From contig NC_009925.1 in assembly GCF_000018105.1 (NCBI RefSeq), positions 1,140,001 through 1,172,000 on the forward strand: 32,000 bases of DNA. Direction: 5' to 3'. Shown piece after piece: positions 8,476-27,642 of this stretch (the first letter of the stretch is position 1; every line of letters starts with the position of its first letter). A program made the position numbers and the translations under genes. The notes under the pieces are model-generated. The model ran no database searches and was not told where the DNA came from. It saw nothing but the letters and a program-made list of their open reading frames with translations. The DNA is from Acaryochloris marina MBIC11017 (GTDB taxonomy: Bacteria > Cyanobacteriota > Cyanobacteriia > Thermosynechococcales > Thermosynechococcaceae).

Positions 8476-8634
8476 TTAGTTCAGACCGCCTAGGCTAGCC
8501 AATAGATCATAAGCTTGGTCGGGAAGTGTGTAGGGTCCCATCTTCTGCAAGTCATCCATACTGACTTGAGTTAATTCTTCAATCGCTCCATGAATCTCTA
8601 ATTTAGGGGAAGTCCAGGCTTTTTTCATGCTCAT
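8476..8634 (-). CDS. Small ORF (52 aa) encoding a RiPP/lasso-precursor-like peptide; absent from the supplied ORF track
   Basis: My own translation of the minus strand gives MSMKKAWTSPKLEIHGAIEELTQVSMDDLQKMGPYTLPDQAYDLLASLGGLN, ending in TAA. W7..Q23 match (Y/W)xxPxLxxxGxxxxxTx with exact spacing. The ORF starts 23 nt downstream of the HPrK-like kinase stop on the same strand. An alternative ATG lies at 8628. Confidence 0.55.
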   Translation of the reverse strand: MSMKKAWTSPKLEIHGAIEELTQVSMDDLQKMGPYTLPDQAYDLLASLGGLN

Positions 8635-8657
8635 TTCAGTTATTCCGCGACGGAACT

Positions 8658-9584
8658 CTATTTTACCACTTCACACCTTAGCGAATATTTCCCAGAATAG
8701 GTACTCTTTATATGGTCTTTTAAGAATTCAGCTAATTTCGAAAGCTGGTTTAAGTCCCGTGGACGCCTTAGTCTATACAGATTTACATGCTTTACCAGTT
8801 GAGCCGCTTGCTTAAAATGGCGGCGGTCTCGAACCGGCAACACGGACTTTAAACCAGAAAACCTGAGTAGTTCAATAATGGCTTGCTGCTGGGGCACGGT
8901 TTCTATAGACCAGTCTGCTCCATATTCCAAAATGTACAAATTCTGAAGGTTATAGGCTTTGGAGGAGTTGGCTGTCAAAAATGCGAAAGCAGATTCTTCA
9001 GCCGTCGACATTGAGGAGACCAACTGGAGCTGAGTGGCGGCGGCTGCAGACAGCTTCATCTTGGGGACGCCCGAATAGAGCGAGACGTTATCTGTATTGA
9101 CATGAACGGCTGTTAAATCATCCGTGATACCGATCCATCCCTGATCTACCGATGCAGCCAAAGCGGATGATTTACCCGCCCCCGAGTCTCCTAGAAAGGC
9201 AATGGCGATGTTGTGAGTAGCGACTGCACTCGCATGCAATATATAGAGTCCTCGTTGATGAAGCAGCACGGCCAGTACAACTCCTAATAAAGCCTGACAG
9301 ATGGATTCTTGTTCTGCACCTTGGGTACAAACGAGGACTATCTTGCACCCCCCTTGAACAATAAAAACACCGATACCCCGTAGATAAACTAAGGCATCCG
9401 TTGGATCAATTTGGATCGCAATGGGCTGTTGGGCAACCCCTAGGGGGATAAAGTCATGGATACAGCCATCCTTCACCAACTGAATCGTGGCATCTGGCTT
9501 CTGGTCTGTAGGCAATAATTCTGGTAAGTCTGGAATAGAAAAGGTTGATTGAAAAATCAGACCATAAAGTTGATAAAAATGCAT
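8658..9584 (-). CDS. HPr kinase/phosphorylase-like serine kinase (HprK-related, RiPP-associated type)
   Basis: It has LYILHASAVATHNIAIAFLGDSGAGKSS (P-loop GxSGxGKS preceded by LHAS), followed by ITDD. The N-terminus YQLYGLIFQSTFSIPDLPEL is typical of stand-alone HprK-related kinases in lasso-type clusters. Length is 308 aa. Confidence 0.8.
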   Translation of the reverse strand: MHFYQLYGLIFQSTFSIPDLPELLPTDQKPDATIQLVKDGCIHDFIPLGVAQQPIAIQIDPTDALVYLRGIGVFIVQGGCKIVLVCTQGAEQESICQALLGVVLAVLLHQRGLYILHASAVATHNIAIAFLGDSGAGKSSALAASVDQGWIGITDDLTAVHVNTDNVSLYSGVPKMKLSAAAATQLQLVSSMSTAEESAFAFLTANSSKAYNLQNLYILEYGADWSIETVPQQQAIIELLRFSGLKSVLPVRDRRHFKQAAQLVKHVNLYRLRRPRDLNQLSKLAEFLKDHIKSTYSGKYSLRCEVVK

Positions 9585-9780
9585 ATCGAGAGTGAGGGCA
9601 CAAAGGGATAGATGCTCGCCTCTCGTGCTTGGAGAAAGTGGAGAGTTTTAGAGCGATGCTTTGACAGGGGGCCGAAACAGGTCAGAAATGGGTTGGGAAA
9701 TTGATTGGCTCCAAATAATAATCTAACTCGCGTCAGGAATTAGGGTTGAAAATACACCTTTCTGGGCATTCTCAAAAGTA

Positions 9781-12700
9781 ATGGACCTTGTGGGAAAAAT
9801 GGATCTTTCTGACATGCGCCTGACTCCAAGTGCTCGTTTGAGCGGATATACTCCCCTTGAAATGCTGCATGAGGGACAGAAGACGCAGGTCTATCGGGCC
9901 TTACGGGTCACTGATCAGCAACCTGTAGTCATCAAAACCACGCCTCCTCAAGTGATCTTAAGGTTTTCAGATCACCTTGCTTTTCGGAATCAATTCACTA
10001 TCAGTCAAAACTTAGATCATCCTGGGATTATCACGACCTATGGTCTAGAGTCCTACGATCAGACCTACGCCCTGGTGATGGAAGATATCCAGGGGATTCC
10101 CCTTTCACAATTCTTACAGTCTTCTGTTTCTCTCAAAGATGGGTTAAATATTGCCCTGCAATTGGCAGACGTACTTCATTACCTCGGTCAACAGCGTGTC
10201 TTACACAAAGATATCAAGCCCGCCAATATTCTGATCCATCCTCAAACGCTTCAGGTTAAGCTGATTGACTTTGGGATTGCTTCCCTCTTACCCAAAGAGA
10301 CTCAAGAACTCAAAAATCCTAATGCCTTAGAAGGGACCTTGGCTTATATGGCCCCAGAGCAAACGGGGCGTATGAACCGGGGGATTGATTTTAGAAGTGA
10401 CTTTTATGGTTTAGGCATAACGCTCTTTGAACTGTTTGCAGCACAGCTACCGTTTCAAGCGGATGAACCGATGGCTTGGCTCCACTGTCATATTGCTCAG
10501 GTGCCCCCTTCTCTAACTCAGTTTGGGATACCAGAAGTTGTGGCTAGCATTGTGGCCAAGCTTCTAGCAAAAAATGCTGAAGATCGCTACCAAAGTGCCT
10601 TGGGATTGAAGTATGACCTGGAACAGTGCCTAACTCGACTATCGGAACAGGACAGGATTGAGCCGTTTGAGGTCGGGCAGAGAGATGTGTGCGATCGATT
10701 CTTGATACCTGACAAACTCTATGGCAGGGAAGCAGAAGTTCAGGCCTTGCTCGATGCATTTGACCGGGTGGCTCACGGTCGTGCAGAGTTAATGCTGGTC
10801 GCTGGTTTCTCAGGGATTGGCAAAACGGCAGTGGTGAATGAAGTCCACAAGCCCATCACTCAGAAAAACGGCTATTTCATTAAAGGAAAATTCGACCAGT
10901 TCAAGCGCAGCACTCCTTTCGCTGCCTTTGTTGAGGCCCTCCGCAGTTTAGTGAAGCAATTGCTGGGGGAATCTGACTTCGTTCTGGCACAGTGGCGAAC
11001 TCGAATTCTCAAGGTTGTGGGTAATAATGGCCAATTACTCATCGATGTTATTCCTGAGTTGGAAACTTTAATTGGGACACAACCTACCGTCTCTGAATTA
11101 GAAGGCAGTGCTGCCCAAAATCGCTTCAACCTAGTCTTGAGTAACTTCATTCAGGCCTTTACCACCCCAGACCATCCGCTGGTGTTGTTTCTGGATGACT
11201 TGCAATGGGCAGACCTAGCTTCTCTAAAGCTGTTACAAGTGTTGATGGAGAGTCATGGATATCTGCTTGTTATTGGAGCCTATCGAGATAATGAGGTAAC
11301 GGCGGGTCATTCTCTCATCCATACCTTAGATACCCTCAGCACTCAGTCTGTTGCCGTTACCTCATTAACCCTAGCGCCCTTAGCCCCTGGTGATATCAAA
11401 CGGCTGGTCGCTGAGAGTCTGAAATGTGCTGTGGTGGTGGCTGAACCCTTAGCTCACCTCGTGTTTCAAAAGACCCAGGGTAACCCTTTCTTCGCGACTC
11501 AGTTTTTACAATCTCTACATCAGGATCAGTTAATCCAGTTTGACTTTAAGCAAGGCTGCTGGCAGTGCGATCTGAGCCAAATTGAGCTTCTTAGCCTGAC
11601 CGATGATGTTGTGACCTTTATGGTTCAACAATTACAAAAGCTGCCCCTAGGGACTCAAACAGTCCTCCAAGTCGCTGCCTGTATTGGTACTCAATTTGAC
11701 TTACATACCTTAGCAACTGCCTGCGACGAAGATCCAACGGAGGCTGCCATCTCCATTTGGGCAGCTTTACAGGCCGGGCTGGTCATTCCCGCGACGCAAA
11801 CCTATAAGTTCTTTCACTCAAGCTGCCATAGCCACACAGCATCTTGTTCAGAACTGAATGGGATTGACGGCACTGTCACCTATCGCTTCTTGCATGATCG
11901 AGTCCAGCAAGCAGCTTACGCACTCATTGATACGACAGAAAAGCTACAAACTCACCTTTCCATTGGGCGTTTGCTGCTCAACGATACACCGGATATTCAA
12001 GGATCCTCTGAGCTCCTGAACATTGTTAATCAGTTTAATGTGGCGGCGTCAATCATTGATGATCCCCAAGAACGCCAGCAGCTGGCGCAGATGAATCTAT
12101 GGGCTGGGCAAAAAGCCCGACAAAATACAGCATTTCAGAGTGCCTTAGACTATAGCTTGCAGGGCATTGATTTCTTGGCTAACAACCCCTGGGAGCAACA
12201 GTATGAGTGGGCGTTAGCACTTTACAATATTGCAGCGGAAACAGCCCAATTAACGGCTAACCCGAACTTCAACCTATATGTCAAAACGGTCTTAGACCAT
12301 GCCACCCATTCTTTAGATAGTTGTGCCGTCCAGAAGACTGAGGTAGCTAACCTAATTGCCCTAGGTGATCTGCTAGGTGCAGTTGATCTTTGTATTGAAG
12401 TACTAAGAAAGCTAGGGGTTGACTTAAATCAAAATGTGAGCGAAATCCAAGCTGGGCTGAGTGTTTTAAAGACTGAGGCTCAGTTAAGGTTTAGGGATCC
12501 GGCCTCTCTAGAAAACTTACCTCACCTGTGCGATCGCAAAATAGAACATATTCTGGGCTTCCTTAACACATTGGTTTCAGTTTCATACCTAACCTATCCC
12601 AACCTCTATGTAGTGGTGGGTGCGAAATTAGTGGAACTGTCCTATCGCTACGGGAACAGCCAGTATTCCTGCACAGGCTATACCATCCTGGGGGTTTTGC

Positions 12701-15700
12701 TGACGGCAGTTTTCAACCGTATCCCTAGAGGGATTCAATATGGCAAAGCAGCGGAAGCGATTATTGATCAATTTCAGAGTGATTATCAAAAATGCTCAGT
12801 ATGGTTTAGCTGTTTGGTCGGTATTCAGCATCGCCACACCCCAATCCGGCAGTTAGAAGCGATTCACCATCAGGGATACGAAATAGGCGTTAATTCAGGA
12901 AATTTCGAATATGCAGCTTGGCACCTGATGATGGAGGGGTTAACCCTCTACTATGCAGGCGCAAATCTAGAAGAGGTGGATCGGCGCGTTGTTAAAAATC
13001 GCGATATTATTGCATCCCTCAAACAGGAAGTTCCTTCCAACTTCAATAACCGCACGGGGCAATGTGCCCTCAATTTGTTAGGTGCTACATCCCACCCCTT
13101 AGATTTCAAAGGCTCACATTTTAACGATGAGCAGTTCACTGAGGAATGTCGCCAATCTGCCTATATTGTTGGTATTACAGGTCTAAATGTTGAGAAACTC
13201 ATTCTCTGTTATTTGTTTGGAGAATTCGAGCAGGCGATGGTCATGGTTGATCGTTGCCAAGAGAAGATTAAAGCCGTCACTGGACAGTTCTATACTTGTC
13301 TATTTCACTTCTACAGCGCACTAACTCTGCTCACCACTGCTTCTGAGCAACACAGTAAACCACTGAATAAACGCATTCAAAAGCACCACAGCGAATTACA
13401 GGTGTGGGCTAAATATGGGCCGATGAATGCTGCTCATAAATGGTCTCTGGTAGAAGCTGAACAGTTGCGATGTCTAGGGCAATACCAGCAGGCAATGGAC
13501 TACTATGACCAGGCGATTGCTGGGGCTCGGGAGAACCAATTTACCCAGGAAGAAGCGCTTGCTAATGAATTGGCCGCTAAATTTTATGGGGAATGGGGCA
13601 AGACGAAAATCGCTGCAACTTATTTGCAGGAAGCTTATTCGTGCTATGCCCGTTGGGGAGCCAAAGCAAAAATCGATGCTCTTGAACAACGATATCCCGA
13701 TTTACTCCGGCCTATCCTCCAGCAGTCGGCACCCTCTCTGAATCCCCTGGAGACTTTAACTGGTTTTACGGGTCCTAAGCTATCAATTCACTCATCTGGC
13801 CCAACCGCTGCGCCTCATGCCAACCTCAATACAGCGCTAGATTTTGCGGCTATCTTCCAGGGTGCTCAAACCCTATCTAAAAGTCTGCATCTAGAGGAAC
13901 TGCTAGAGAAACTGACCCAGATGATGCTGCAAAATTCTGGAGCAGATCGGCTGGCTCTGCTTTTGCCTGAAGCCGATGGTGCTTTATTGGTCAGAGTCTC
14001 TGCCACCCCTGAGCAGACACAGCTTACATCTACCCCTCTGGCAGACCACCTGGATCTACCGGTTCAACTGATTCAGTATGTTAAAAATACCCAAGAAACT
14101 CTGGTCGTAGATGATCTCGCCACGGACTTGCCCATCCTGGATGACTTTCTCCAACAGTCTCAGCCTCGGAGTTTACTGTGTTTACCGATCCTGTATCAAA
14201 GTCATCTTAGGGGCCTGTTGTATTTACAGAATCGCAATATGGCGGGGGTATTTACACGCGATCGCGTCACCGTCCTCAACTTTCTCTGTTCTCAAGCGGC
14301 TATCTCTTTAGAGAATGCCAGACTGTTCGAATCACTGGCACTTAAGTCTTCCATCATCGAATCTGCAGTGGATGGCATGGCGATATTAGAAGGGGGTAAA
14401 TTTATTTATCTCAACCAATTCCATACCACCCTTTTTGGTTATGAACCGAATGAGCTGCTCGGGCAAAGTTGGGAAAAACTATACTCCCCAGCAGAAGTAC
14501 AACTCTTTCAAGAAATAGCATTTCCAATATTGGCAAAGACAGGACGATGGTCAGGAGAAGCTACCGCTATCCGCAAAGATGGCAGTTCTCTGGATGAAGA
14601 AGTAAGTTTATTCCTTTTAGACAATGGCAAACTCATTTGCATTTGCCGAGATATTAGCGATCGCAAAATTGCTGAGGCCAACTCTCGTTTGCTAGCATCT
14701 GTGGTCGAGTCGTCTAATGATGTGATTGTCACTAAGAACTTAGAAGGTATAATCACGAGCTGGAATCAGGCTGCCACAGATTTATTTGGATATTCGGAAG
14801 CAGAAGCGATTGGCCAATCTATCCTGATGCTGTTTCCACCCGATCGGCACCATGAAGAAACCCACATTCTTACTTGTCTTAAGAACAAGAAAAGTGTTGA
14901 GAACTTTGAAACTGTTCGGCTCCACAAACAGGGGTATCCGATTGATATTTCAGTTACGATTTCTCCCTTAGTGAACAGCCAAGGTAAGGTGATTGGAGCA
15001 TCAAAGATCGTCAGAGATATTCGCGAACGAAAAATTGCAGAGGTTGCACTACGACAAAGTGAAAGTAAATTCCGTAACCTGCTCACAAATTTAGATGGCG
15101 TCGTGTATCGTTGCCAAAACGATGCGCACTGGACTATGGAGTTTATGAGTGATGCAGTTACAGCTTTATCTGGTTATCCGGTTGCAGACTTTATCGATAA
15201 TCGCCATCGCAGTTACGCTAGCATTATCCATCCTGGCGATGTGGAATGGGTGGATCAAGTCATTAATGAACAACTGACTCACCATCAACCCTTCTCCCTG
15301 GAGTATCGTGTGATCCACCGAGATGGTTCAATTCGCTGGGTGACGGAAAAGGGGAAGGGCATTTTTAATGCCGACCATCAACTCCAACATTTAGAAGGTG
15401 TGATATTTGATATTAGCGATCGCAAACATACAGAACTGGCCCTTCAACTCAGCGAAGCCCGAGCTAATGCAGCATTCGATCAGGCAGCTTTAGGCATTGT
15501 TGAAGTCAATAATCAAACGGGTAAGATTTCTCGGGTTAATAACTATATGTGCGACTTGCTGGGCTATAGTCGCCTTGAACTATTGCAAAAGACCGTTGCA
15601 GACATCACCCATCCTGATGATTTATCCGAATCTTATCAGCTGATGCAGCTCCTCCAGAGGGGAAAAATCGGTAATTTTACGACCGAGGAACGATATCTCC

Positions 15701-18267
15701 GTCAGGATGGTGGCATTATTTGGTCATCAACCACCGTTACCCTCGTGGAAATGGGAAATGGAGAAGCCCAGTATTCCCTAGGGATGATTCAAGATATTAG
15801 CGATCGCAAAGCTGCGGAACTGGCCCTGAAAGATAGTCAGGCTCAATTTCGACGCATGACCGAAAACGTACCGGGGATGATCTATCGCTACGTCTTCCAC
15901 CCTGATGGTCAGAATGAGCTGACCTATATCAGTTCTCAGGTTCGGGAAATATTTGAAATAGAACCTGAAGTGGCACTGCAGGATGCGAGCAAGCTCTGGG
16001 AGAGGGTCCATCCCGATGACCTTGCCTTTGTCCAATCTGAGATTCAGGGATTTCACGAAACCTTGCAGTCAACTCCGATTGAGTGTCGACTCCTCTTACC
16101 CCAAAAAGGATTGTGCTGGATTCAACTCATCGCTCGCATCGAACGATTGGATAATGGCGATACCGTCTGGGATGGCGTTGCCCTAGACATTAGCGATCGC
16201 AAAGCAGCAGAAGCAAACCTGCGTTTTAGTGAACAACGGTTTCGGCGGGCGATTGAGGATGCCCCTTTCCCCATTATGCTTCATGCCGAAGATGGTGAAG
16301 TTCTCCAAATCAATACCACCTGGACAGAACTCACTGGCTATACTCACCCAGAGATTCCCTCCACAGCCGCTTGGGCAGAACGTGCTTATGGGAAAGATGC
16401 GGCCAGAGTCCTTAAGGAAGTGATGGCTAAAAAATATACCCTGACGTCTCGTTGGGAAGAAGGCGAGTTCACCATTCAAACCAAAAATGGCGATCAATGC
16501 CGCTGGCAATTTAGTTCAGCTCCCTTAGGGGTTTTACCGGATGGTCGGCGGATCGTCATTTCAATGGCCGTGGATGTCACCCAACGACGGCAGACCGAAG
16601 ATGAATTAGAACAAGCCAATCAGCAACTAGCAGAATACTCTCATACCCTAGAGCAACGAGTTGAAGAAAGAACCCAGGCACTCCAAATCGCTAAGGAACA
16701 AGCAGACAGTGCCAACCAAGCGAAAAGCGAATTTCTGGCCAATATGAGTCATGAATTGCGCACCCCCCTCAACGGCATTCTGGGGTATGCTCAAATCCTC
16801 AATCGATCCACAACCTTAATAGATAAAGAACGAGATGGCATTAAAGTTATCCATCAATGTGGTTCCCATTTACTCAGCCTGATTGACGACATCCTAGATC
16901 TGGCTAAAATTGAAGCGCGCAAATTGGAACTGGTGCCGGTTGATACCTACCTCCCTGCGGTCCTCCACAGTGTGGTCGAAATTTGCAAAATCAAAGCCCA
17001 GCAAAAAGGAATCGATTTTGTTTATGCCCCAAAAGACCTGCCTATAGGGGTTAGGGTTGATGAAAAATGCCTACGGCAAGTGTTAATCAATTTATTAGGC
17101 AACGCCGTCAAATTTACGGACAATGGAACGGTCACCCTAAACGTCGAAGTGTTGAGCACCTCAAACCAGGAAGCTTCGCTATTATTTCAGGTGATGGATA
17201 CGGGGATCGGTATTGCTGAGACGGATCTCTCTAAACTCTTTGATGCCTTTGAACAAGTTGGTGCCCGTGATCGGCGAGCGGAAGGGACTGGTTTGGGACT
17301 TGCCATCAGTCAACGGATTGTCCAACTGATGGGCCACAGTATTGAGGTAAAAAGCCAGGTAGGAATAGGGAGCCAGTTCTCCTTTAGGCTGGACCTCCCT
17401 CTCACCGAGAATAAAGTTCAACGCCAGTCTATTCTCAACAACCATGATCGGATTATTGGCTACCAAGGTGAGCGCAAGCGAATTCTTGTGGTTGACGACC
17501 ATGAGAATAATGTCGCGATGCTATGCAATCTCCTAGAACCCCTCGGGTTTAAAGTAGATGTTGCTCATAATGGTTTAGAAGCCTTGGACAAACTCAACCA
17601 TCGCCCGGATCTGGTACTGACGGATTTATCCATGCCAGTGATGGATGGTTTTGAGTTGTTACGGCACATTCGCGCTGATGCCGATCTCCAAACCCTCAAG
17701 TTCATCGTTTCCTCGGCCTCTGTTGATCCCGTATACCAACAACAAGCTTTAGAAGTGGGTAGCGATGCATTTCTCGCGAAACCCATTGATACCCAAGCCT
17801 TATTTCAGGCCTTTTCCGAACAGCTTAATTTGGACTGGATCTATGAAGCACTCACCCCCGCACCTCAACAGATGGAGGTTGCTTCATCAGAAATAGTATC
17901 TGAAGTCACTTCGACAGTAAAATTCGCTTCAACTGCTGATCAACTGAGCCTAATAAAGGATCAGCGAGTCTTGCCAGATATTGACGGGGAGAGATCGTCT
18001 CCAGTCATACTTAACACTCCAGCCAGAGAAAAAACACCACATTTAAACGGGGTTTATCCACCGAAGGAAACCATAGAAAGACTAGTAGGCATGGCAAATA
18101 AAGGTAGTATATTTGAGATCAAAGATGAATTATTAAACATTCAACTTTCCAACCCAAAATATCAACTCTTTTGCCATAAAATATCACATTGGACTGACCA
18201 CTTTGAACTGAATAAAATTCAAGCCTTTTTACAAGATGCTTATGAAAATTATCAGGACCACACATAG
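9781..18267 (+). CDS. Giant hybrid multi-kinase: Ser/Thr kinase - AAA/STAND ATPase - helical repeat region - GAF - about 6 PAS - histidine kinase - receiver - C-terminal tail (HstK-like), 2828 aa
   Basis: Uninterrupted 8.5-kb ORF. Motifs with coordinates: HKDIKPANIL 10204..10233, DFG 10267..10275, LAYMAPEQ, Walker A GFSGIGKT 10804..10827, Walker B LFLDDLQWAD, GAF (~13840..14330), PAS cassettes each ending in ISDRK/IRERK, H-box SHELRTPLN (His 16750..16752), G2 box GTGLGLAISQRIV, and receiver DD...TD(17623..17625)...KP. Confidence 0.92.
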   Translation: MDLVGKMDLSDMRLTPSARLSGYTPLEMLHEGQKTQVYRALRVTDQQPVVIKTTPPQVILRFSDHLAFRNQFTISQNLDHPGIITTYGLESYDQTYALVMEDIQGIPLSQFLQSSVSLKDGLNIALQLADVLHYLGQQRVLHKDIKPANILIHPQTLQVKLIDFGIASLLPKETQELKNPNALEGTLAYMAPEQTGRMNRGIDFRSDFYGLGITLFELFAAQLPFQADEPMAWLHCHIAQVPPSLTQFGIPEVVASIVAKLLAKNAEDRYQSALGLKYDLEQCLTRLSEQDRIEPFEVGQRDVCDRFLIPDKLYGREAEVQALLDAFDRVAHGRAELMLVAGFSGIGKTAVVNEVHKPITQKNGYFIKGKFDQFKRSTPFAAFVEALRSLVKQLLGESDFVLAQWRTRILKVVGNNGQLLIDVIPELETLIGTQPTVSELEGSAAQNRFNLVLSNFIQAFTTPDHPLVLFLDDLQWADLASLKLLQVLMESHGYLLVIGAYRDNEVTAGHSLIHTLDTLSTQSVAVTSLTLAPLAPGDIKRLVAESLKCAVVVAEPLAHLVFQKTQGNPFFATQFLQSLHQDQLIQFDFKQGCWQCDLSQIELLSLTDDVVTFMVQQLQKLPLGTQTVLQVAACIGTQFDLHTLATACDEDPTEAAISIWAALQAGLVIPATQTYKFFHSSCHSHTASCSELNGIDGTVTYRFLHDRVQQAAYALIDTTEKLQTHLSIGRLLLNDTPDIQGSSELLNIVNQFNVAASIIDDPQERQQLAQMNLWAGQKARQNTAFQSALDYSLQGIDFLANNPWEQQYEWALALYNIAAETAQLTANPNFNLYVKTVLDHATHSLDSCAVQKTEVANLIALGDLLGAVDLCIEVLRKLGVDLNQNVSEIQAGLSVLKTEAQLRFRDPASLENLPHLCDRKIEHILGFLNTLVSVSYLTYPNLYVVVGAKLVELSYRYGNSQYSCTGYTILGVLLTAVFNRIPRGIQYGKAAEAIIDQFQSDYQKCSVWFSCLVGIQHRHTPIRQLEAIHHQGYEIGVNSGNFEYAAWHLMMEGLTLYYAGANLEEVDRRVVKNRDIIASLKQEVPSNFNNRTGQCALNLLGATSHPLDFKGSHFNDEQFTEECRQSAYIVGITGLNVEKLILCYLFGEFEQAMVMVDRCQEKIKAVTGQFYTCLFHFYSALTLLTTASEQHSKPLNKRIQKHHSELQVWAKYGPMNAAHKWSLVEAEQLRCLGQYQQAMDYYDQAIAGARENQFTQEEALANELAAKFYGEWGKTKIAATYLQEAYSCYARWGAKAKIDALEQRYPDLLRPILQQSAPSLNPLETLTGFTGPKLSIHSSGPTAAPHANLNTALDFAAIFQGAQTLSKSLHLEELLEKLTQMMLQNSGADRLALLLPEADGALLVRVSATPEQTQLTSTPLADHLDLPVQLIQYVKNTQETLVVDDLATDLPILDDFLQQSQPRSLLCLPILYQSHLRGLLYLQNRNMAGVFTRDRVTVLNFLCSQAAISLENARLFESLALKSSIIESAVDGMAILEGGKFIYLNQFHTTLFGYEPNELLGQSWEKLYSPAEVQLFQEIAFPILAKTGRWSGEATAIRKDGSSLDEEVSLFLLDNGKLICICRDISDRKIAEANSRLLASVVESSNDVIVTKNLEGIITSWNQAATDLFGYSEAEAIGQSILMLFPPDRHHEETHILTCLKNKKSVENFETVRLHKQGYPIDISVTISPLVNSQGKVIGASKIVRDIRERKIAEVALRQSESKFRNLLTNLDGVVYRCQNDAHWTMEFMSDAVTALSGYPVADFIDNRHRSYASIIHPGDVEWVDQVINEQLTHHQPFSLEYRVIHRDGSIRWVTEKGKGIFNADHQLQHLEGVIFDISDRKHTELALQLSEARANAAFDQAALGIVEVNNQTGKISRVNNYMCDLLGYSRLELLQKTVADITHPDDLSESYQLMQLLQRGKIGNFTTEERYLRQDGGIIWSSTTVTLVEMGNGEAQYSLGMIQDISDRKAAELALKDSQAQFRRMTENVPGMIYRYVFHPDGQNELTYISSQVREIFEIEPEVALQDASKLWERVHPDDLAFVQSEIQGFHETLQSTPIECRLLLPQKGLCWIQLIARIERLDNGDTVWDGVALDISDRKAAEANLRFSEQRFRRAIEDAPFPIMLHAEDGEVLQINTTWTELTGYTHPEIPSTAAWAERAYGKDAARVLKEVMAKKYTLTSRWEEGEFTIQTKNGDQCRWQFSSAPLGVLPDGRRIVISMAVDVTQRRQTEDELEQANQQLAEYSHTLEQRVEERTQALQIAKEQADSANQAKSEFLANMSHELRTPLNGILGYAQILNRSTTLIDKERDGIKVIHQCGSHLLSLIDDILDLAKIEARKLELVPVDTYLPAVLHSVVEICKIKAQQKGIDFVYAPKDLPIGVRVDEKCLRQVLINLLGNAVKFTDNGTVTLNVEVLSTSNQEASLLFQVMDTGIGIAETDLSKLFDAFEQVGARDRRAEGTGLGLAISQRIVQLMGHSIEVKSQVGIGSQFSFRLDLPLTENKVQRQSILNNHDRIIGYQGERKRILVVDDHENNVAMLCNLLEPLGFKVDVAHNGLEALDKLNHRPDLVLTDLSMPVMDGFELLRHIRADADLQTLKFIVSSASVDPVYQQQALEVGSDAFLAKPIDTQALFQAFSEQLNLDWIYEALTPAPQQMEVASSEIVSEVTSTVKFASTADQLSLIKDQRVLPDIDGERSSPVILNTPAREKTPHLNGVYPPKETIERLVGMANKGSIFEIKDELLNIQLSNPKYQLFCHKISHWTDHFELNKIQAFLQDAYENYQDHT

Positions 18268-18420: not shown

Positions 18421-21400
18421 ATGGCACCTTCTATCGATGTTTCCTTGCCAGTTATTCCGGGTTATACCCTCTCGGAACAGCTCCATGAAGGACGTCACTC
18501 TGCTGTCTATCGAGCTTTTTCTGTTCCAGAACAGCAATCGGTGATTCTCAAAATCTTGCGTTCTCAGTATCCCCACTTTCGGGAGCTGGTTAAGTTTCGC
18601 AATCAGTTTACCCTAACGCAAAATCTCGATATCCCAGGGGTGGTCAAACCACTTTGTCTAAGGCCCTGGAACAGCAGCTATGTTCTGGTGATGGCGGATC
18701 ATCATGCCTTTTCTCTTCACCACTACTGCCGCCATCAATCCCTTGACTGGCCTGAGGTCTTGGAGCTGGCTCTCCAACTAGCAGACATTCTTCACCATCT
18801 CAACCAATCCCACATTATTCATAAGGATATTAAACCAGCCAATATTCTGATTCATTCCCAATCTATGGAAGTCTGGCTGATCGATTTCAGTATTGCATCG
18901 TTATTACCAAAGGAACGACAGGTTCTCCAAAGTCCAGGGAATTTGGAAGGGACCCTGGCCTATCTGGCCCCCGAACAGACCGGACGCATGAACCGAGGGA
19001 TCGACTACCGAACCGATTTTTATGGATTGGGGGTGACGCTCTATGAGTTACTGACTGGCAGGCTTCCCTTTTCTACAGATGACTGGATGGAATTGGTTCA
19101 TTGCCATCTAGCGAAGCCGCCACAGCCGCCCCACGAGGTGAATCCCCAGATTCCCCTGCCGGTCTCCCAAATGGTGTTAAAGTTAATGGCCAAGAATGCG
19201 GAAGACCGCTATCAAAGTGCGTTGGGGCTAAAGCATGATCTACAACGGTGTTTAGAGCTGAGGCACGGCCAGAACAGCGATCAAACCTTTGAATTGGGAT
19301 TGCGAGATGTTTGCGATCGCTTCTTGATACCCGAAAAACTCTATGGCCGTGAACCGGAAGTCCAAAAATTGATCGATGCCTTTGAGCGAGTGGTCCAGGG
19401 GCATTCAGAGCTAGTGCTGGTGGCTGGATTCTCGGGAATTGGCAAAACGGCAGTGATCCATGAAGTGCATAAGCCCATTACCCAAAAGAAGGGCTACTTT
19501 ATCAAGGGGAAGTTTGACCAGTTCAACCGCAACATCCCCTTTTCGGCCTTTGTCCAAGCCTTTCGCGGCTTAATGGCCCAGCTCCTAGGTGAATCGGACG
19601 ATCGCTTAGCCCATAGGAAAACCCAAATTCTAGAGGCCGTGGGGGAGAGTGGTCAGGTCCTACTAGAGGTGATTCCTGAACTGGAGCATATTATTGGTGA
19701 GCAGCCCGCCGTCCCAGAATTATCTGGTCTCTCTGCCCAAAATCGATTTAATCGATTATTTAGCCAATTCGTCCAGGTCTTTACCACGCCAGAACATCCC
19801 TTAGTTATCTTTTTGGATGATCTGCAGTGGGTCGATTCGGCTTCCTTGGGTCTGCTTAAATTGCTAATGGTCGAAGCCCAGGCAGGCCACCTGCTTGTCC
19901 TCGGTGCTTATCGAGATAATGAGGTATTCCCGGCTCATCAGTTGATGCTGACGGTAGATGACCTAAAGAAGCAACATGCCGCAATCCACACCGTTACCTT
20001 GCCCCCCCTTGGGCAGCTCCATGTCAATCAACTGGTTGCGGATACCCTGCTTTGTGAACCGGAAGTAGCAGTCCCCTTATCTCAGCTGGTGTACCAAAAG
20101 ACCCAGGGCAATCCCTTTTTTATGACCCAATTCTTGCTGGGGTTGCAGAGTGATGGTCATCTTACGTTTAACCGTGATCTGGGATATTGGCAGTGTGATT
20201 TAGTCCAGGTGCAACAACTGGCACTGACGGATGATGTCGTGGCGTTTATGGAAGAGCGACTCCAAAAGCTCCCCACTCCCACCCAAGATGTTTTAAAGCT
20301 GGCAGCCTGTATTGGTAACCTGTTTGACTTGGCTACTTTGTCACTGGTTTGCGATCGCAAACCTCAAACCGTCGCTTCAGATCTTTGGCCAGCCCTACAG
20401 GCAGGTCTCGTTATTCCTGAAAGTGCTTTATACAAGTTTTTCCAGGGTGAGAATCGAGACCTCACCGATATGGCAGCCGTAACCACCTCCTACCGCTTTT
20501 TGCACGATCGGGTGCAGCAAGCCGCCTATGCTTTAATTCCAGAGGCGCAAAAGCAAGCCACCCATGTCAATATTGGCCGGTCGCTGATCAGCCAACTCTC
20601 CCCCACAGAAATCGAAGAGCGACTCTTTGATATCGTCAATCACTGGAATATCGGCATTGCTGTCCTCACCAATCCTGTTGAACAAGAGCAGCTTTGCCAG
20701 CTCAACCTCAGAGCAGGAGAAAAAGCAAAAGGGGCGATTGCCTATGATATGGCTCAGCATTATGCGGAAAAAGCGGTTGAGTTCCTCCATCCCCAGAGTT
20801 GGCAAACGGATTATGCTCAGACCCTAGCCATCCAGAACTTGTCCGCAGAAGCAGCCTATCTTAATGGCGATTTTGCCCAAGTAACCCATTGGACTGAGCG
20901 GATATTACAACATGCCCAACAGCTGGATCAAACGAAAGCCTATGAAATCAAGATTCTGGCAACGGTTGCCCAAAAACAGTTTTTAGAGGCCATTGAATTA
21001 GGTCGACAGGTTCTGAAATCGTTAGATGTCGATATTCCTCACGAGCCTGATGCCCATGAAATTCAACAGGCCCTTGACGCTACGGCTGAGCTAGTTCCTC
21101 AAGCCCAAATTCAGTCTCTGGTGGATTTGCCAGTGATGACTGATCCGATGTCCCTGGCTGCCCTGCGCATTCTCAATAGCATTGCGGTCAGCGTTTACCT
21201 GGCTCAACCTCAGCTTTTTCCCCTGATTGTCCTTGCCCAGGTCAATCTGTCGATCTTGCATGGCAATGCCCCTATTTCAGCGGGAGCTTACGCTCGCTAC
21301 AGTTTAGTGCTCTGCGGCAAGGTCAATGATATTGAAGCGGGCTACGCCTTTGGTCAATTAGCCTTAACCCTTTCAGATCGGTTTGGCAACCGAGAGATTA

Positions 21401-24400
21401 ACGCCCGTGTCCTCTTGATGGTGGGGGCGTTAACGTTGCCCTGGCAGGAGCACTTGAATACGGCCATCCCTCTTCTTCAGCAGGGCTACATCGATGGCCT
21501 GGAATCTGGAAGTTTAGAAGCGGCGGCCCTGAGTCATTACTACGAAAGTCAATCTGCATATCTAGTGGGTCAAGAACTCGGGGCCTTTGAGCAACAAGCT
21601 CGGTTCTACAGCGAGCATATTCGTCAAATTAAGCAGGCGGTCCACCTCCAGAACAACGAACTTTTCCGTCAAGTTGCCTTGAACTTGAGAGGTGAAGGGG
21701 ACGATCCTTGTGCCTTAAAGGGAGAGGCCTTTGATGAAGCAGTGATGCTGCCACAGTATCAAGCCACCAATAATCTATTAGGACTGTTTTGCTTCCATCT
21801 GCACAAACTAATGCTGTGCTATTGGTTTAACCAACCGGAGCAAGCTATCGCCCATGCCCAGCAGGCAGTGGACTATTTATCTGGGGTAACGGCTCAGGCA
21901 ACCGTACCGGTCTTCTACTTTTATGATTCATTGACAAGGTTGTCTGATTCAGTCCCTGATATCGATTCGGCGACCTTGGAACGGTCAGAGGCCAGCTTAG
22001 ATTTAGAAGTCGTTCATAAGAATCGTGCCAAGTTAGCGCATTGGGCACAATTTTGTCCAGAGAACTTCCAGCACAAACTGGACTTAGTTGATGCCGAGTA
22101 TTACGCTCGCATGGGGCAAAAGCTGGAAGCGATAGAACATTATGACCGCGCTATTCAAGGGGCAAAGGAAAATCAGTATATTCAGGAAGAAGCCCTCGCG
22201 AATGAACGGGCTGGAAAGTTTTACCTGAATTGGGGGAAAGGGCAGGCCGCTGTCGGTTACCTGCAGGCAGCCTACTACTGCTATGCCCATTGGGGAGCCA
22301 CCGCTAAAACCGATGACTTGGAATGGTGTTATCCCGACCTACTCCAACCGATTCTCCAACAGGCCCATCAAGCCTCTATCTCCTTGGGCACCTTAAACAA
22401 TATTGCACCGCTGACGCTGTCCATTCATTCGTCCACCAGTACGTCTGAACCGTCCAACCAAGGCGTTAATCAAACTCTGGATCTAGCTGCCATTTTGAAA
22501 GCTGGTCAAGCCCTGTCTATCAGCCTTGATCTGGATGAGCTGCTAGACAAGCTGGCGGGGATAGTGCTACGGACGTCTGGCGCAGATAGATTAAATCTTC
22601 TGCTACCGGAAGAGGATGGTTCTTGGCAAATCAGAGTCAACGCTACGCCTGAGACTACACAACTGGATGCTACGCCTCTGGTTGCCCCTGCTAACCTACC
22701 GATTCAACTGATCCAATACGTCAAACATACCCAGGAAGTTCTGTGTATTGATGGCTTGGAAGCAGAATTGCCCATCGTTGATCCGTACCTGCAAGAGCAT
22801 CAACCTCGGAGTGTCCTTTGTCTCCCTCTTTTGCACCAAGGAAATCTCAGCGGGCTACTGTATCTAGAAAATCAAGCAACGGCTGGTGTATTTACTTGCG
22901 ATCGCATCACCATCCTTAACTTCCTCTGTTCCCAAGCTGCGATTTCCTTAGAGAATGCCAAACTCTATGAATCTGCCAAGCTCAAATCATCCATCATCGA
23001 ATCAGCGATTGATGGCATGGCAATATTAGAAGATGGTAAATACATTTATCTCAACGAAGTCCATGCCACGCTGTTTGGCTATGAACGAGATGAGTTGGTG
23101 GGACAAAGTTGCGAAATTCTATACTCTCCAATAGAACTTCAGCGCCTGCACGAATTAGCATTTCCGATAGTCGCAAAGACGGGGCAATGGTCTGGAGAGG
23201 CGACCGCCACTCGCAAAGATGGCAGTTCTTTCCCAATAGACGTGAGTCTATTTTTACTAGAAGATGGCAAACTCATTTGCATCTGTCGAGATATTAGTGA
23301 TCGCAAGGCTGCAGAAATACAGCTCAGGCAACAAGAGAACCAGTATCGACAAGTCTTTGAAAGTATTGTTGATGGCTTGAACATCGTTGATTTAGAAACA
23401 GGTCAACTGGTCAAAGTTAACCCTGCTTACAGTCAAATGATGGGCTATTCTTCTTTAGAAGAATGTTTAAGAGCGCCAATCAGCCACAATATCCATCCAG
23501 ACTCTTTATACCTATTGGATGATTGTCTCAATGCAGTTCGGAATGGGCAGGAGTTTAGTTGCCAAGCTCAGAATCTTCATCAAGATGGGACCGTTATTGA
23601 TGTTGAAGTGAGCGCCATTCCCTATCCGTATAGGGGGAAGATCCATGCTTTAGCAATTGTGCGGGATATTAGCGATCGCAAACGGCTGGAAAAGGAACAA
23701 GCCCAATTGTATGAGTCCCTCGCGCTCAAGTCTTCTGCCATAGAGGCGTCTGATGCGGGTATCGCGATTTTAAAGGATGGACACTATATCTATCTCAACG
23801 CCAGCCATCTTTCGTTATTAGGGTATGAAGAACATGAGCTGATGGGGGCCAGTTGGGAAATTCTCTACGAGCCTGAAGAAGTTGAACGATTCAGTCAACA
23901 AATATTCCCTCAACTAGCAAAAGAGGGGCGCTGGTTTGGAGAAGCAACGGCTCGAAGAAAAGATGGGAGCTATTTTCCCCAAGAGGTGAGTTTGTCTGCC
24001 TTGGAAGACCATAAGTTGATTTGTATTTGCCGAGATATTAGCGAACGCAAACGGCTCGAGGCCAAACAACAACGGCAGCTTGATATTTTGGCCAGCACAT
24101 CAGATTTTATTGGCACAGCCGACCCCAACGGCAACATCCTATACCTCAATGAGGCTTGGCAACAGCTGTTACAGAGAGAGCAAGGTGAACCAGCCCATCG
24201 CGTACAAATTTCTGAACAGCACCCAGCCTGGGCTTTAGAGATTATTGTTCATGAGGCTTTACCCGTAGCAGCACAAAAAGGCATGTGGTGTGGAGAAACG
24301 GCATTACTGGATGGCGATGGGAATGAAGTCCCCGTGTCTCAAGTGGTGATTGCACACAAATCTAGCAATGGTGGGGTGAAGTATTTCTCCACGATCGTCC

Positions 24401-27400
24401 GTGATATTAGCGAACGCAAACAACTAGAACAGGAGCAAGCCCGACTGACTGCTGTGTTAGAAGCGACCCCTGACTATATTGGGATAGCCAGTACCACAGG
24501 AGAGATCTTATGGCACAACAGGCAGCTTAGAGCCCTCCGTTCAGATCTGGAGCAACATCAGGATCATCGCTCCATTGCAGATTGTCATCCCGATTGGGTT
24601 AACCAAATTATTGTGGAAGAGGCCTTACCTGCTGCAATTGAATATGGCAGTTGGACGGGAGAATTGGCACTTCTTGAGGGTAATGGCGATGAAATCCCCG
24701 TTTCGCAAGTCATTATTGCCCATAAAGCAGCAGATGGAACTGTAGAAAACTTTTCAACGATCATGCGAGATATGCGCGATCGTAGATCCGCAGAACAAGC
24801 CTTGGCAGAAAGTCAGGCCCAATTTCGACGCATGACTGAAAATGTACCAGGGATGATCTTTCGCTATGTTTCACATCCTGATGGTAGTAAAGAAATGACC
24901 TATGTTAGTTCACAGGTTCGCGAGATTTATGAACTTGAACCCGAGACAGTTCTCCAAGATTTTGCTTGTCTGTGGGAGAGAACCCATCCCGAGGATATTG
25001 CATGGTTAGAAGCAACAGCTAAAGTCTGTGCCAAGACTTTGCAACCATTCAAGACTGAAAATCGCCTGATCCTCCCTCAGAAGGGGCTGCGATGGGTACA
25101 AGCATCTGCTCTGCCAAAACGATTAGAGAATGGTGATATCGTTTGGGATGGCGTTGTGCTGGATATTAATGATCGCAAAGCGGCAGAAGCGAATCTTCGA
25201 GCCAGCGAGCAGCGGTTCCGACGCGCCATTGAAGATGCGCCTTTCCCGATTATGATTCACGCAGAAGATGGAGAGATTCTGCAGATTAGCTCCACATGGA
25301 CCGAGTTAACCGGCTATACCCTCGCCGACATCCCCACAACAACGGACTGGGCCCAGCGAGCCTATGGAGCAGATGCTCCCCGAATCCTTAAAGAAGTAAT
25401 GGCACAAAAATACAGCCGAACTACACGTTGGGATGAAGGAGAGTTTGCCATTCGCAAACAGGATGGCGACTACTGTTTTTGGCAGTTTAGCTCTGCCCCC
25501 CTGGGAACCTTACCCGATGGACGTCGCCTAGTCGTCTCCATGGCAGTTGATGTCACTCAACGACGCCAAGCTGAAAATGACCTGGAACAGGCCAATCAAC
25601 AATTGGAAGAGTATTCTCAAACCCTCAAACAAAAAGTTGAAGCGCGAACCATTGCCCTACAGGCCGCCAAAGAGCAGGTCGAAAAAGCCAATGAGTATGA
25701 ACAGGCACTCAATCGGATCACCAAAGAGATTCGCCAAAGCCTCAACCTCCATGACATTTTTGCAACCACAACCCAAGCCGTCAGACCCATTCTGGGGTGC
25801 GAACGGGTAACGGTCTATCAATTTGATGCGGAGTGGGGCGGTAAATTTGTATTCGAATCGAAACACGATTCTCTTGAACCGCTAGTGTTTAGTTCACGTC
25901 AAGCCGAGTGGAATGATTCCTTTTTGGTCAACGAAGAGGGGAATCCCTGTGTATTTAACACCACTTATCAGGTTGATGATATCTCCGAGAAAGAACTGTC
26001 CCCCTGTCACCTTGAGGTTCTGGAACGCTTTAATATCAGGGCCTACCTGGTGGTCCCGATTTATGTCGGCAAGAAGCTCTGGGGGTTACTGGCGGCCTAC
26101 AATCATTCCCAACCCCGAGCATGGCAGCCCGGTGAGGTCAGGCTATTTGAACAGGTCTGCAGTCATTTAGGCGTTGCCCTCAAGCAAGCTGAGTTGCTAT
26201 CAGCCATGGCTGAATCCAAAGAAAAAGCCGATGCGGCGAACGAAGCCAAAAGCCTTTTTCTCGCCAATATGAGTCACGAACTTCGCACGCCCCTTAATGG
26301 CATCCTGGGCTATGCCCAAATCCTGCGCCGCTCAGAATCCCTATCGAATAAAGAACTGGAAGGGGTTGACACTATCTATCAGTGTGGTTCCCACCTGCTC
26401 AACTTGATTAATGACATTCTGGATATTTCTAAAATTGAGGCGCTCAAACTTGAGCTGACCCCTAAAGCAGCCAATCTGCCTTACCTCTTACAGACTGTCG
26501 TCGAAATGTGCAAGGTTAAAGCCGATCAAAAGGGAATTCAATTTAACTATCAACCCAGTTCACAGCTTCCTCAGCAGGTTGAGGTGGATGACAAGCGCTT
26601 GCAACAGGTTCTGCTCAATCTATTGGGGAATGCTGTCAAATTTACGGATCATGGCTCGGTTACCTTTATCGTCGATGTCTCCCCCCTTTCGGAGCAACAG
26701 GTTTCCATCTCTTTCCGGGTCATCGATACAGGGGTAGGCATTGCTGAACAGGATTTAGTAAAACTTTTCCAGTCCTTCAAACAGGTCGGTGATCAACATA
26801 AACAAGCTGAAGGGACGGGCTTGGGACTGGCCATTAGTCAGCGCATTGTCCGGCTGATGGGCAGTGAAATTCATGTCACCAGTCAGCCTCAACAAGGCAG
26901 TGAATTTTCCTTTACGATTAATCTTCCCCTAGCGGAGCAGAGGCTAGCTCAGCAGCAGAGTAATCCTGTGATTGTCGATTACCAAGGAAAACGACGACAA
27001 GTGTTGGTCGTCGATGATCGATGGGAAAATCGGGTCGTTCTGTCGACGTTGTTAGAATTGGTGGGCTTCACTGTCCTTGAGGCAGAGCAGGGACAGGCTG
27101 GACTCGACATTCTGAACCAGGGAACCCCCGATCTAGTCATTACTGATCTGATCATGCCAGGCATAGATGGTTATGAATTTTTAGCTGCAGTTCGCCAGGC
27201 TGAACCCATCAAAACGTTAAAGATGATTGCGACGTCGGCAACGATTAACCTAAATGTACAGAAGAGAGCATTTAAGGCGGGTTGTGATGCTTTTCTGCCA
27301 AAGCCCATTGATGTACAGAATTTGTATAACACGATTGCTGAACTGCTTCAGTTGGAGTGGATTTATGAAGCCTTACCCGAGGGACAAACACCTGAACCGA

Positions 27401-27642
27401 CTGGATTGATAACTCCGAGTGCTGATATCATTGTGCCGCCCCCGGAGAAGCTGACTGTTTTGCTGGAATATGCTGCCAGTGGTATTGTCAAAGACTTGCG
27501 CGAGCAACTCGATCAGCTGGTTGCAACTGACACCCGGTATGCCGCCTTTGCCCAACCGCTTATGAGGCTATCCAAACAATTCAAGATTGAAGAGATCGAA
27601 GGGATACTTACAGATTATTTAGGTCAAGCAGACTCCAATTGA
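18421..27642 (+). CDS. Giant hybrid multi-kinase paralog: Ser/Thr kinase - AAA/STAND ATPase - helical repeat region - GAF - about 7 PAS - second phytochrome/CBCR-like GAF - histidine kinase - receiver - tail, 3073 aa
   Basis: Uninterrupted 9.2-kb ORF, colinear with 9781..18267 at both ends. Motifs with coordinates: [10 protein letters not shown] from 18820, DFS instead of DFG at 18883..18891, Walker A 19426..19449, GAF1 (~22480..22970), extra GAF (~25696..26200, Cys-His at 26005..26010), H-box His 26275..26277, [13 protein letters not shown], and receiver Asp 27145..27147. Confidence 0.92.
   Translation: [3073 protein letters not shown]

Follow-up and report, generated by a model that had tools for sequence, protein, structure and literature searches.

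Why would a cyanobacterium have a kinase of the kind that phosphorylates lasso-peptide precursors, beside a peptide with a lasso-type leader, but no other lasso genes nearby? This question is raised by a 32-kb stretch of the genome of Acaryochloris marina MBIC11017 (NC_009925.1, positions 1,140,001 to 1,172,000), which we call the window. Coordinates are positions within the window, unless they are preceded by the number of another locus (L001 to L033). On the minus strand, a gene for a 308-amino-acid (308-aa) kinase (8658..9584) is followed by a small open reading frame, or ORF (8476..8634). A preliminary description of the window, made from the sequence alone, proposed that this pair is either half of a split pathway whose maturation genes lie elsewhere or a stand-alone module that makes a linear phosphopeptide. 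We examined the pair and its relatives in other genomes and metagenomes. We put the probability at roughly 55% that it is a reduced, still functional two-gene derivative of a phosphorylated-lasso pathway, and that it leads to a linear phosphopeptide.

A small gene with a lasso-type leader

The small ORF (8634..8476, minus strand) encodes 52 aa, MSMKKAWTSPKLEIHGAIEELTQVSMDDLQKMGPYTLPDQAYDLLASLGGLN. The translation is exactly as quoted in the preliminary description, and the ORF does start 23 nucleotides (nt) past the stop codon of the 308-aa ORF (9584..8658, minus strand). The frame stands, but the start probably does not: every orthologue begins at MKK, which makes M3, encoded by the second ATG (nt 8628), the probable true start. 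This would give a 50-aa product, MKKAWTSPKLEIHGAIEELTQVSMDDLQKMGPYTLPDQAYDLLASLGGLN. The spacer between the two genes (8635..8657, minus strand) is 23 nt long, or 29 nt if M3 is the start, and it is 26–63 nt long in the orthologues of the pair. The two genes are on the same strand and presumably form one operon.

The ORF was said to be unannotated, and consistent with this, the protein database has no exact match to the A. marina peptide. It does contain eight relatives (73–93% identity), every one of which is from the Acaryochloridaceae. One orthologous copy was missed by the gene finder of its assembly. The ORF is intact in all of the orthologous loci that we inspected (10/10). According to Nei-Gojobori counts, synonymous sites are saturated (pS, the proportion of synonymous differences, is 0.5–1.0), and the corresponding proportion for nonsynonymous differences (pN) is just 0.06–0.19 for the peptide, versus 0.15–0.38 for the kinase. 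The preliminary description had suggested the substitution pattern as a check, and the pattern is not neutral. Similarly, the peptides are 69–94% identical between loci whose kinases are 45–72% identical. The intact ORF at every locus and the low pN at saturated pS show that this is a real gene under strong purifying selection.

These counts effectively refute the idea that the pair no longer functions and is just what remains of a lasso cluster after its decay. The maturation genes and the ring acceptor are indeed gone. But besides the intact ORF and the low rate of nonsynonymous change, the catalytic motif of the kinase is invariant, and the pair has been kept through several genomic rearrangements. 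We consider a relic to be the least likely of the explanations discussed here.

The leader of the peptide (M3–Q23; 8566..8628, minus strand) is WTSPKLEIHGAIEELTQ. It has the WxxPxL motif for binding a RiPP recognition element or RRE (RiPPs are peptides that are synthesized ribosomally and modified post-translationally), a conserved HG, and a threonine at position –2 (T22). The preliminary description had noticed a lasso leader motif at exact spacing in W7–Q23, and this holds up well: W7–Q23 is the sole match to [YW]xxPx[LVIFA]xxxGxxxxxTx when the window is translated in all six frames (the mean number of matches over 100 shuffles was 0.1), and 17 of the 21 positions in the leader show little or no variation. 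Among the curated models, lasso_cyano (NCBIfam NF033528) scores best. It matches residues 3–24 at model positions 1–22 (E = 2e-6; 27.6–27.8 bits, which does not pass the cutoff of 33), and the core part is unmatched. The rhodolasso and paeninodin-family models match the peptide more weakly. The leader is also ~60% identical to the leaders of precursors from complete cyanobacterial lasso clusters of the type B1-B2-C-A-K-D-N. (In these clusters, A is the precursor, B1 is the RRE, which belongs to PqqD, B2 is the leader protease, Transglut_core3, C is the cyclase, Asn_synthase, K is the kinase, D is the ABC exporter, and N is the nucleotidyltransferase, NTP_transf_5.) Given this similarity, we conclude that the leader is of the genuine lasso type and is homologous to the precursors of complete cyanobacterial lasso clusters.

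A kinase from the lasso-precursor kinase family

The 308-aa protein is an HPrK/ScmC-type P-loop kinase, with an all-beta N-terminal domain (approximately residues 1–90) and a PEPCK/HPrK-like catalytic domain. Its matches to the older families are weak (15.5 bits for Hpr_kinase_C, with a cutoff of 33.3, and 24.9 for HprK_rel_A, with a cutoff of 200), and the identical database entry, from Acaryochloris marina, carries a precomputed match to PF27840 (ScmC). An AlphaFold2 model that was built with 31 homologues (pLDDT 89, pTM 0.87) is similar to ATP-PEPCK (Foldseek, 1.7e-7) and to HPrK/P (1.3e-4). We found no winged-helix RRE domain in this model. HPr kinase/phosphorylase, ScmC, and the HprK-related kinases A and B share the P-loop PEPCK-like fold and the Walker A motif with the 308-aa protein, but sequence similarity to them is very low, and the HPr, SPASM, or GRASP context is missing.

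The catalytic motif (9117..9236, minus strand) comprises His117, the Walker A sequence G132-D-S-G-A-G-K-S-S140, and Asp155-Asp156. H117, G132, G135, G137, K138, S139, D155, and D156 are invariant across the Acaryochloris clade and 31 family members. Mutagenesis of BsfK and of the paeninodin kinases has shown that they cannot do without this H-G-G-G-K-S-D-D motif (PMC10368454, PMC9266682). Outside of the Acaryochloris clade, relatives of the kinase are 30–36% identical, and most of them belong to canonical lasso clusters, which also encode PqqD, Transglut_core3, and Asn_synthase (L002, L028, L029, L030). Together, the motif and the relatives indicate that, as the preliminary description had supposed, the 308-aa protein is a member of the lasso-precursor kinase family. 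Its catalytic motif is intact.

The characterized lasso-precursor kinases modify linear precursors that still bear the leader, rather than cores or mature lassos (PMC10368454, PMC13381572, PMC9266682). They add one to four phosphates, either at the C-terminal serine (paeninodin, ThcoA, SyanA, and pseudomycoidin) or at Ser3 (BsfA and LppA) (PMC10368454, PMC13381572, PMC9266682).

A core with an invariant serine and no ring acceptor

The 29-aa core (V24–N52; 8479..8565, minus strand) has a variable linker, which is VSMDDLQKM in A. marina, followed by an almost invariant GPFxLP(D/E)QAxDLLASL block. Core positions 7–9 are Q-K-M in A. marina and are not acidic in any of 12 orthologues. Position 9 is Met in A. 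marina and Val or Lys in the relatives, with a conserved Gly next. Because there is no Asp or Glu at positions 7–9, the canonical macrolactam is impossible, which agrees with the preliminary description. That description also considered it an anomaly that the core begins with Val. But the cores from complete cyanobacterial clusters begin with V or Q, so this is normal for the family.

Could a cyclase that is encoded elsewhere still make a true lasso? One suggestion was a non-canonical cut before G33, which would give a seven-residue ring between G33 and D39. All of the orthologues do have G33, and all have an acidic residue at position 39. However, such a cut would put Lys instead of Thr at position –2, so the usual signal is missing, and WxxPxL would be nine residues too far away. 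After the canonical TQ junction, positions 7–9 are never acidic, and we found no cyclase near any of the orthologues. Finally, as described below, L018, L024, and L031 have lost Asp9 along with the cyclase. We therefore think that a true lasso is very unlikely.

Ser47 (codon at 8494..8496, minus strand) is the single invariant hydroxyl residue of the core: it is present in 12/12 orthologues. In most of the related peptides, the equivalent motif, (L/F)A(S/T)L, also has a Ser or Thr, and when the true lasso homologues are aligned, their near-C-terminal Ser falls close to Ser47. Based on this conservation, Ser47 is the predicted phospho-acceptor.

Two other interpretations of the C-terminus were rejected. 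GPFxLPEQAxDLLASLGG bears a superficial resemblance to a truncated PEP-CTERM signal, but there was no match to PEP-CTERM or cyano_PEP models even at E ≤ 10, and there is no basic tail. DLLASLGG is similar to a double-glycine leader, but by inspection, several of the orthologues end with ASLTI, ASLGI, or ASLNI and lack the GG.

The pair travels without other lasso genes

Using Pfam and phmmer, we searched all of the ORFs in the 32-kb window for PqqD, Transglut_core3, Asn_synthase, an ABC exporter, and NTP_transf_5, and found none of these. The check for PqqD and Transglut_core3 covered ORFs of at least 40 aa, in the window and in the orthologous loci. So, the preliminary description was right that the window has no cyclase, B2 protease, RRE, or ABC exporter.

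To find other loci, we combined scans with a peptide profile (against GTDB genomes and JGI metagenomes) with look-ups of the contigs that encode homologues of the kinase; the metagenome scan used the peptide alignment. A kinase gene followed by the peptide gene is present in at least 10 distinct loci from the Acaryochloridaceae, in at least four unrelated neighbourhoods (L001/L013, L005/L006/L017, L007/L008/L023, L009, L012, L014, L015, and L016). The preliminary description had asked whether the small ORF is interrupted or absent at orthologous kinase loci, and it is neither. Within the available flanks (up to 10 kb per side), none of these 10 or more loci has B1, B2, C, D, or N near the pair. 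In the literature, we found no description of a module with just the kinase and the peptide, and no lasso-type system was described from Acaryochloris in what we found.

A stand-alone module is better supported than a split pathway, since the pair occurs by itself in at least four contexts, and independently in a second lineage (see below). We retain the split pathway as a rival.

Descent from complete lasso clusters

The same leader is found inside complete clusters, with the arrangement B1-B2-C-A-K-D(-N), in Leptolyngbya cf. ectocarpi LEGE 11479 and in three cyanobacterial metagenome-assembled genomes (L019–L022). The N gene lies within the flank that we fetched for 3 of these 4 loci. Two metagenome contigs (L026 and L027) contain parts of the same B1-B2-C-A-K-D-N cluster. 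The precursors from L019–L022 begin with MKKTWTTPNLQxHGAVEALTQ, which continues as (V/Q)TKT(L/I)GFxDGVIL...PIGS(M), and the leader that they have in common is MKKTWTTPxLxxHGAVExLTQ. In these true lasso cores, the first residue is V or Q, Asp9 is followed by Gly, and there is a Ser at 1–2 residues from the C-terminus. They are 29 aa or slightly longer, and the core from A. marina is 29 aa.

Other loci are intermediate. L024 contains a GH3-family gene, B1, B2, K, A, cyanoexosortase A, an HpsJ-like gene, and N, and L018 contains B1, K, A, and cyanoexosortase A; both lack the cyclase. In a second cyanobacterial lineage (L031–L033), which also lacks the cyclase, the peptide is followed by the kinase alone, so the order is reversed relative to Acaryochloris. 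None of the peptides from L018, L024, or L031–L033 has an acidic residue at core positions 7–9. Across these loci, the Asp9 acceptor and the cyclase have been lost together.

We also searched 1.84 billion representative proteins with a profile. About 15 clusters of peptides (at 50% identity) combine the leader with an end like xGL(F/L)A(S/T)Lxx, and a smaller set of peptides has NDG-type ring acceptors. The A. marina peptide falls in the former, non-lasso group. Based on the shared leader and on these intermediates, we conclude that the pair descends from a cyanobacterial, paeninodin-like lasso cluster, B1-B2-C-A-K-D-N.

With lasso_cyano, the peptide at L024:10001-10147 scores 39.3 bits, which is above the cutoff of 33 and would earn it the name of lasso peptide, yet it has no ring acceptor and there is no cyclase nearby. 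The genuine cluster precursor from L019 scores 32.4 bits, which is below the cutoff. The model seems to capture just the leader.

Several of the related loci have other unusual features. At L018:8409-10995 and L024:8176-12419, and also at L025:3797-6026, sister peptides with lasso-type leaders and non-lasso cores (...KIGKFLLPxKG...) are directly upstream of cyanoexosortase A (TIGR03763, 275–292 bits), which in L024 is followed by a cyanoexosortase-A-associated HpsJ-like protein. In L025, the peptide comes after two cyanobacterial PEP-CTERM proteins, and no kinase was found at that locus. An association of a lasso-leader peptide and its kinase or RRE with the PEP-CTERM/exosortase system may be new.

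The GH3-family gene in L024 (6080-7801) encodes an acyl-acid amido synthetase (270 bits). It is directly 5' of the cyclase-less B1-B2-K-A genes. Enzymes of this family are of the ATP-dependent, amide-forming type, and this one occupies the place where the lasso cyclase would be expected.

At L031:8555-11357, and also in L032 and L033, a protein with a retropepsin-like Asp_protease_2 domain and a PDZ domain is encoded just upstream on the same strand. This protein could be an alternative leader peptidase. Downstream are a DegT aminotransferase and a glycosyltransferase.

L011:4304-9524 has the arrangement B1-B2-A-K-D-N, with no Asn-synthase cyclase in the available 14 kb. Its precursor core, AGGKTSHDF...KTGS, nonetheless keeps Asp8 and the C-terminal Ser, as in paeninodin. 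Outside of the cyanobacteria, a cyclase-less arrangement is also found in an Abditibacteriota genome, AP024152 (L010:7753-10534). There, a 71-aa peptide with the leader YHAPGLKIHGKLERLTL and a Gly-rich core adjoins genes for the kinase, PqqD, and NTP_transf_5, and there is no B2 or cyclase. Finally, in the canonical B1-B2-C...K cluster at L028 (6145-7956), three tandem proteins of 164–176 aa with Peptidase_S74 (the intramolecular chaperone) are encoded at the position of the precursor.

A predicted linear phosphopeptide

How might the pair work? In our proposal, a lasso-cluster ancestor would have lost its RRE, leader protease, cyclase, exporter, and nucleotidyltransferase, along with the ring-acceptor Asp of the peptide, while strong purifying selection kept the kinase and the peptide together across the Acaryochloridaceae. 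The HPrK/ScmC-type kinase would itself read the lasso-type leader that the peptide retains, with no need for an RRE, and would use ATP to phosphorylate or polyphosphorylate the peptide, most probably at Ser47 in the DLLASL motif. Because there is no cyclase and no ring acceptor, the product should be linear and not a lasso. And because no protease or exporter is linked to the pair, the product may retain its leader, stay at full length, and act inside the cell.

Several observations weigh against this proposal. There is no RRE linked to the A. marina pair, yet the RRE BsfB1 speeds BsfK, which performs poorly without it (PMC10368454). The recognition elements for B1 (WxxPxL) and for B2 (Thr at –2) are invariant, so the peptide may still be processed by B1 and B2 that are encoded elsewhere. 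That a peptide should be better conserved than its enzyme is unusual for the substrate of a RiPP pathway. Also, the region equivalent to Ser47 lacks both Ser and Thr in the sister peptides from L024 and L025, so not every member of the wider family can have a Ser as its target.

The effect of BsfB1 on BsfK and the invariant recognition elements are points in favor of a split pathway, in which an unlinked RRE and B2 (or another protease), along with an exporter, trim the leader once the peptide is phosphorylated and then export the linear product. An analogue would be found in the linear polyphosphorylated peptides (LPPs) of the Bacillota, which are a precedent for processing without a cyclase (PMC13381572). 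Also, L018 (B1) and L024 (B1 and B2) retain such genes beside the kinase and the peptide. On the other hand, these genes are absent from the flanks (up to 10 kb per side) of at least 10 loci. Indirect checks for unlinked copies were negative, though weak. A protein search with B1 from L018 found five relatives, none of which was named Acaryochloris. Comparing B2 from Leptolyngbya to PLSDB plasmids with tblastn, which has low sensitivity here, found two weak matches and no Acaryochloris plasmid. A similar search with the Leptolyngbya cyclase found 511 records, which were mostly AsnB, and no Acaryochloris was among the organisms listed. The best 120 matches to the kinase do not include a second kinase that is named A. 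marina. Overall, we regard the split pathway as possible but doubtful.

The high conservation of the peptide raises another possibility, which is that the peptide is a small regulator or adaptor (a pseudo-substrate or a targeting subunit) and that the kinase phosphorylates something else. A peptide that changes more slowly than its kinase and has a nearly invariant C-terminal block is typical of a protein with a fixed partner, rather than of a RiPP core, and there is no exporter or protease. But every characterized member of this kinase family modifies an adjacent peptide that bears a leader (PMC10368454, PMC13381572, PMC9266682), and in the A. marina peptide the leader is intact and a conserved Ser is present. 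An adaptor seems unlikely to us, and less so than a true lasso.

Comparison with phosphorylated lassos and LPPs

The nearest known systems are the clusters for phosphorylated, paeninodin-type lassos and, as regards function, the LPPs. Compared to the former clusters (with kinases PadeK, ThcoK, SyanK, and PsmK, or BsfK from Bradymonas), the A. marina pair has the same family of kinase, with the H...GxSGxGKS...DD motif. It likewise has an adjacent gene for the putative substrate, with a (Y/W)xxPxL...T(–2) leader, and the kinases in those clusters act on the linear precursor. In contrast to those clusters, the A. marina locus lacks B1, B2, C, D, and N, and its core lacks the ring acceptor. The candidate Ser47 is six residues from the C-terminus, while their phosphorylated residues are C-terminal or at core position 3. 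Also, the A. marina core is highly conserved, and theirs are variable. As for the lasso class in general, the leader motif is present, and the ring acceptor, a linked cyclase, a linked B1 or B2, and a score above the curated cutoff are all lacking.

The preliminary description knew of no stand-alone kinase-plus-peptide module that makes a linear phosphopeptide. We also found no report of a kinase-peptide-only system, but LPPs have since been described from the Bacillota (Popov et al., Nat Commun, May 2026; PMC13381572). In LPP systems, the kinase is accompanied by an SpI-like leader peptidase, a discrete RRE, and an NTP-transferase, as well as an MsbA-like exporter (PMC13381572). The LPP leader has the consensus YxxPxVLxHQxIxFETxxS and is reported from Bacillota only (PMC13381572). 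Both LPP systems and the A. marina pair are lasso-derived and cyclase-less, with an HprK-like kinase as the primary modifier, and a linear phosphopeptide is the product of the former and the expected product of the latter. However, the peptidase, RRE, NTP-transferase, and exporter are absent from the window and from the orthologous loci, and the A. marina leader uses Trp and has a different downstream consensus, while LPP leaders are of the YxxP type. Since none of the defining features of LPPs is present, the A. marina locus is not an LPP system. By analogy, the pair may work like the first step of the phosphorylated-lasso and LPP pathways. It appears to be the end point of a reductive series that began with a phosphorylated-lasso cluster, which would make it a leaner cousin of the LPPs.

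The region around the pair

As the preliminary description stated, the pair lies between a convergent GST gene on one side and a divergent gene for a 2828-aa giant kinase on the other. The giant kinase is the first of two tandem paralogous giant proteins (9781-18267 and 18421-27642, plus strand; 2828 and 3073 aa), both of which combine a Ser/Thr kinase domain (Pkinase), AAA_16 (STAND), GAF, multiple PAS domains, HisKA, HATPase, and REC. A regulatory link between the pair and this sensor kinase had been suggested, but we reject it because the adjacency is not conserved. L007 and L008 show synteny with the window (Rad52, ligase ... abhydrolase, methyltransferase), except that the two giant genes and GST are absent, and in these relatives the DNA ligase directly adjoins the kinase of the pair. 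Relative to L007 and L008, the two giant genes are inserted between the pair and the DNA ligase.

At other loci, the flanking genes differ. The pair is near DNA ligase and a 99-aa ORF in L007, L008, and L023, near a rhodanese and DUF2949 in L005 and L006, and near an amidase in L009. In L001, an AMP-binding enzyme is encoded downstream.

The divergent intergenic region (9585..9780) presumably holds the promoter of the kinase-peptide operon, judging from its position. A scan of its minus strand with promoter consensus sequences found nothing above the expectation from shuffles, and nor did a scan for terminators. Within the spacer between the kinase and the peptide, A. marina has a perfect 5-bp palindrome, TTCCG-NNN-CGGAA (8643-8655). 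This palindrome is not kept in the orthologues, and no conserved RNA hairpin was found in their spacers.

Implications

Within one phylum and with one leader, these loci form an evolutionary series from the full lasso cluster through B1-B2-K-A and B1-K-A to K-A. Along it, the cyclase and the ring-acceptor Asp disappear together. Genome-mining tools and the lasso_cyano model can mislabel such peptides as lasso peptides although they are unable to form a lasso.

If the kinase does modify the peptide without an RRE, this would show that a tailoring enzyme is able to recognize a lasso-type leader by itself, and the pair would be the smallest known derivative of the lasso/LPP machinery. The unusually strong conservation of the peptide, which exceeds that of the kinase, suggests that it has a fixed target in the cell and is not an antimicrobial in an arms race. 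Because the sister peptides adjoin cyanoexosortase A, a role in the envelope or in exopolysaccharide is possible. More tentatively, we speculate that a RiPP precursor and its tailoring kinase were exapted, in at least two cyanobacterial lineages, as an RRE-free two-gene system, in which the uncleaved and unexported 50-aa peptide serves as an intracellular phospho-switch or regulator. If true, this would be a peptide-kinase signalling pair that was born from a natural-product pathway.

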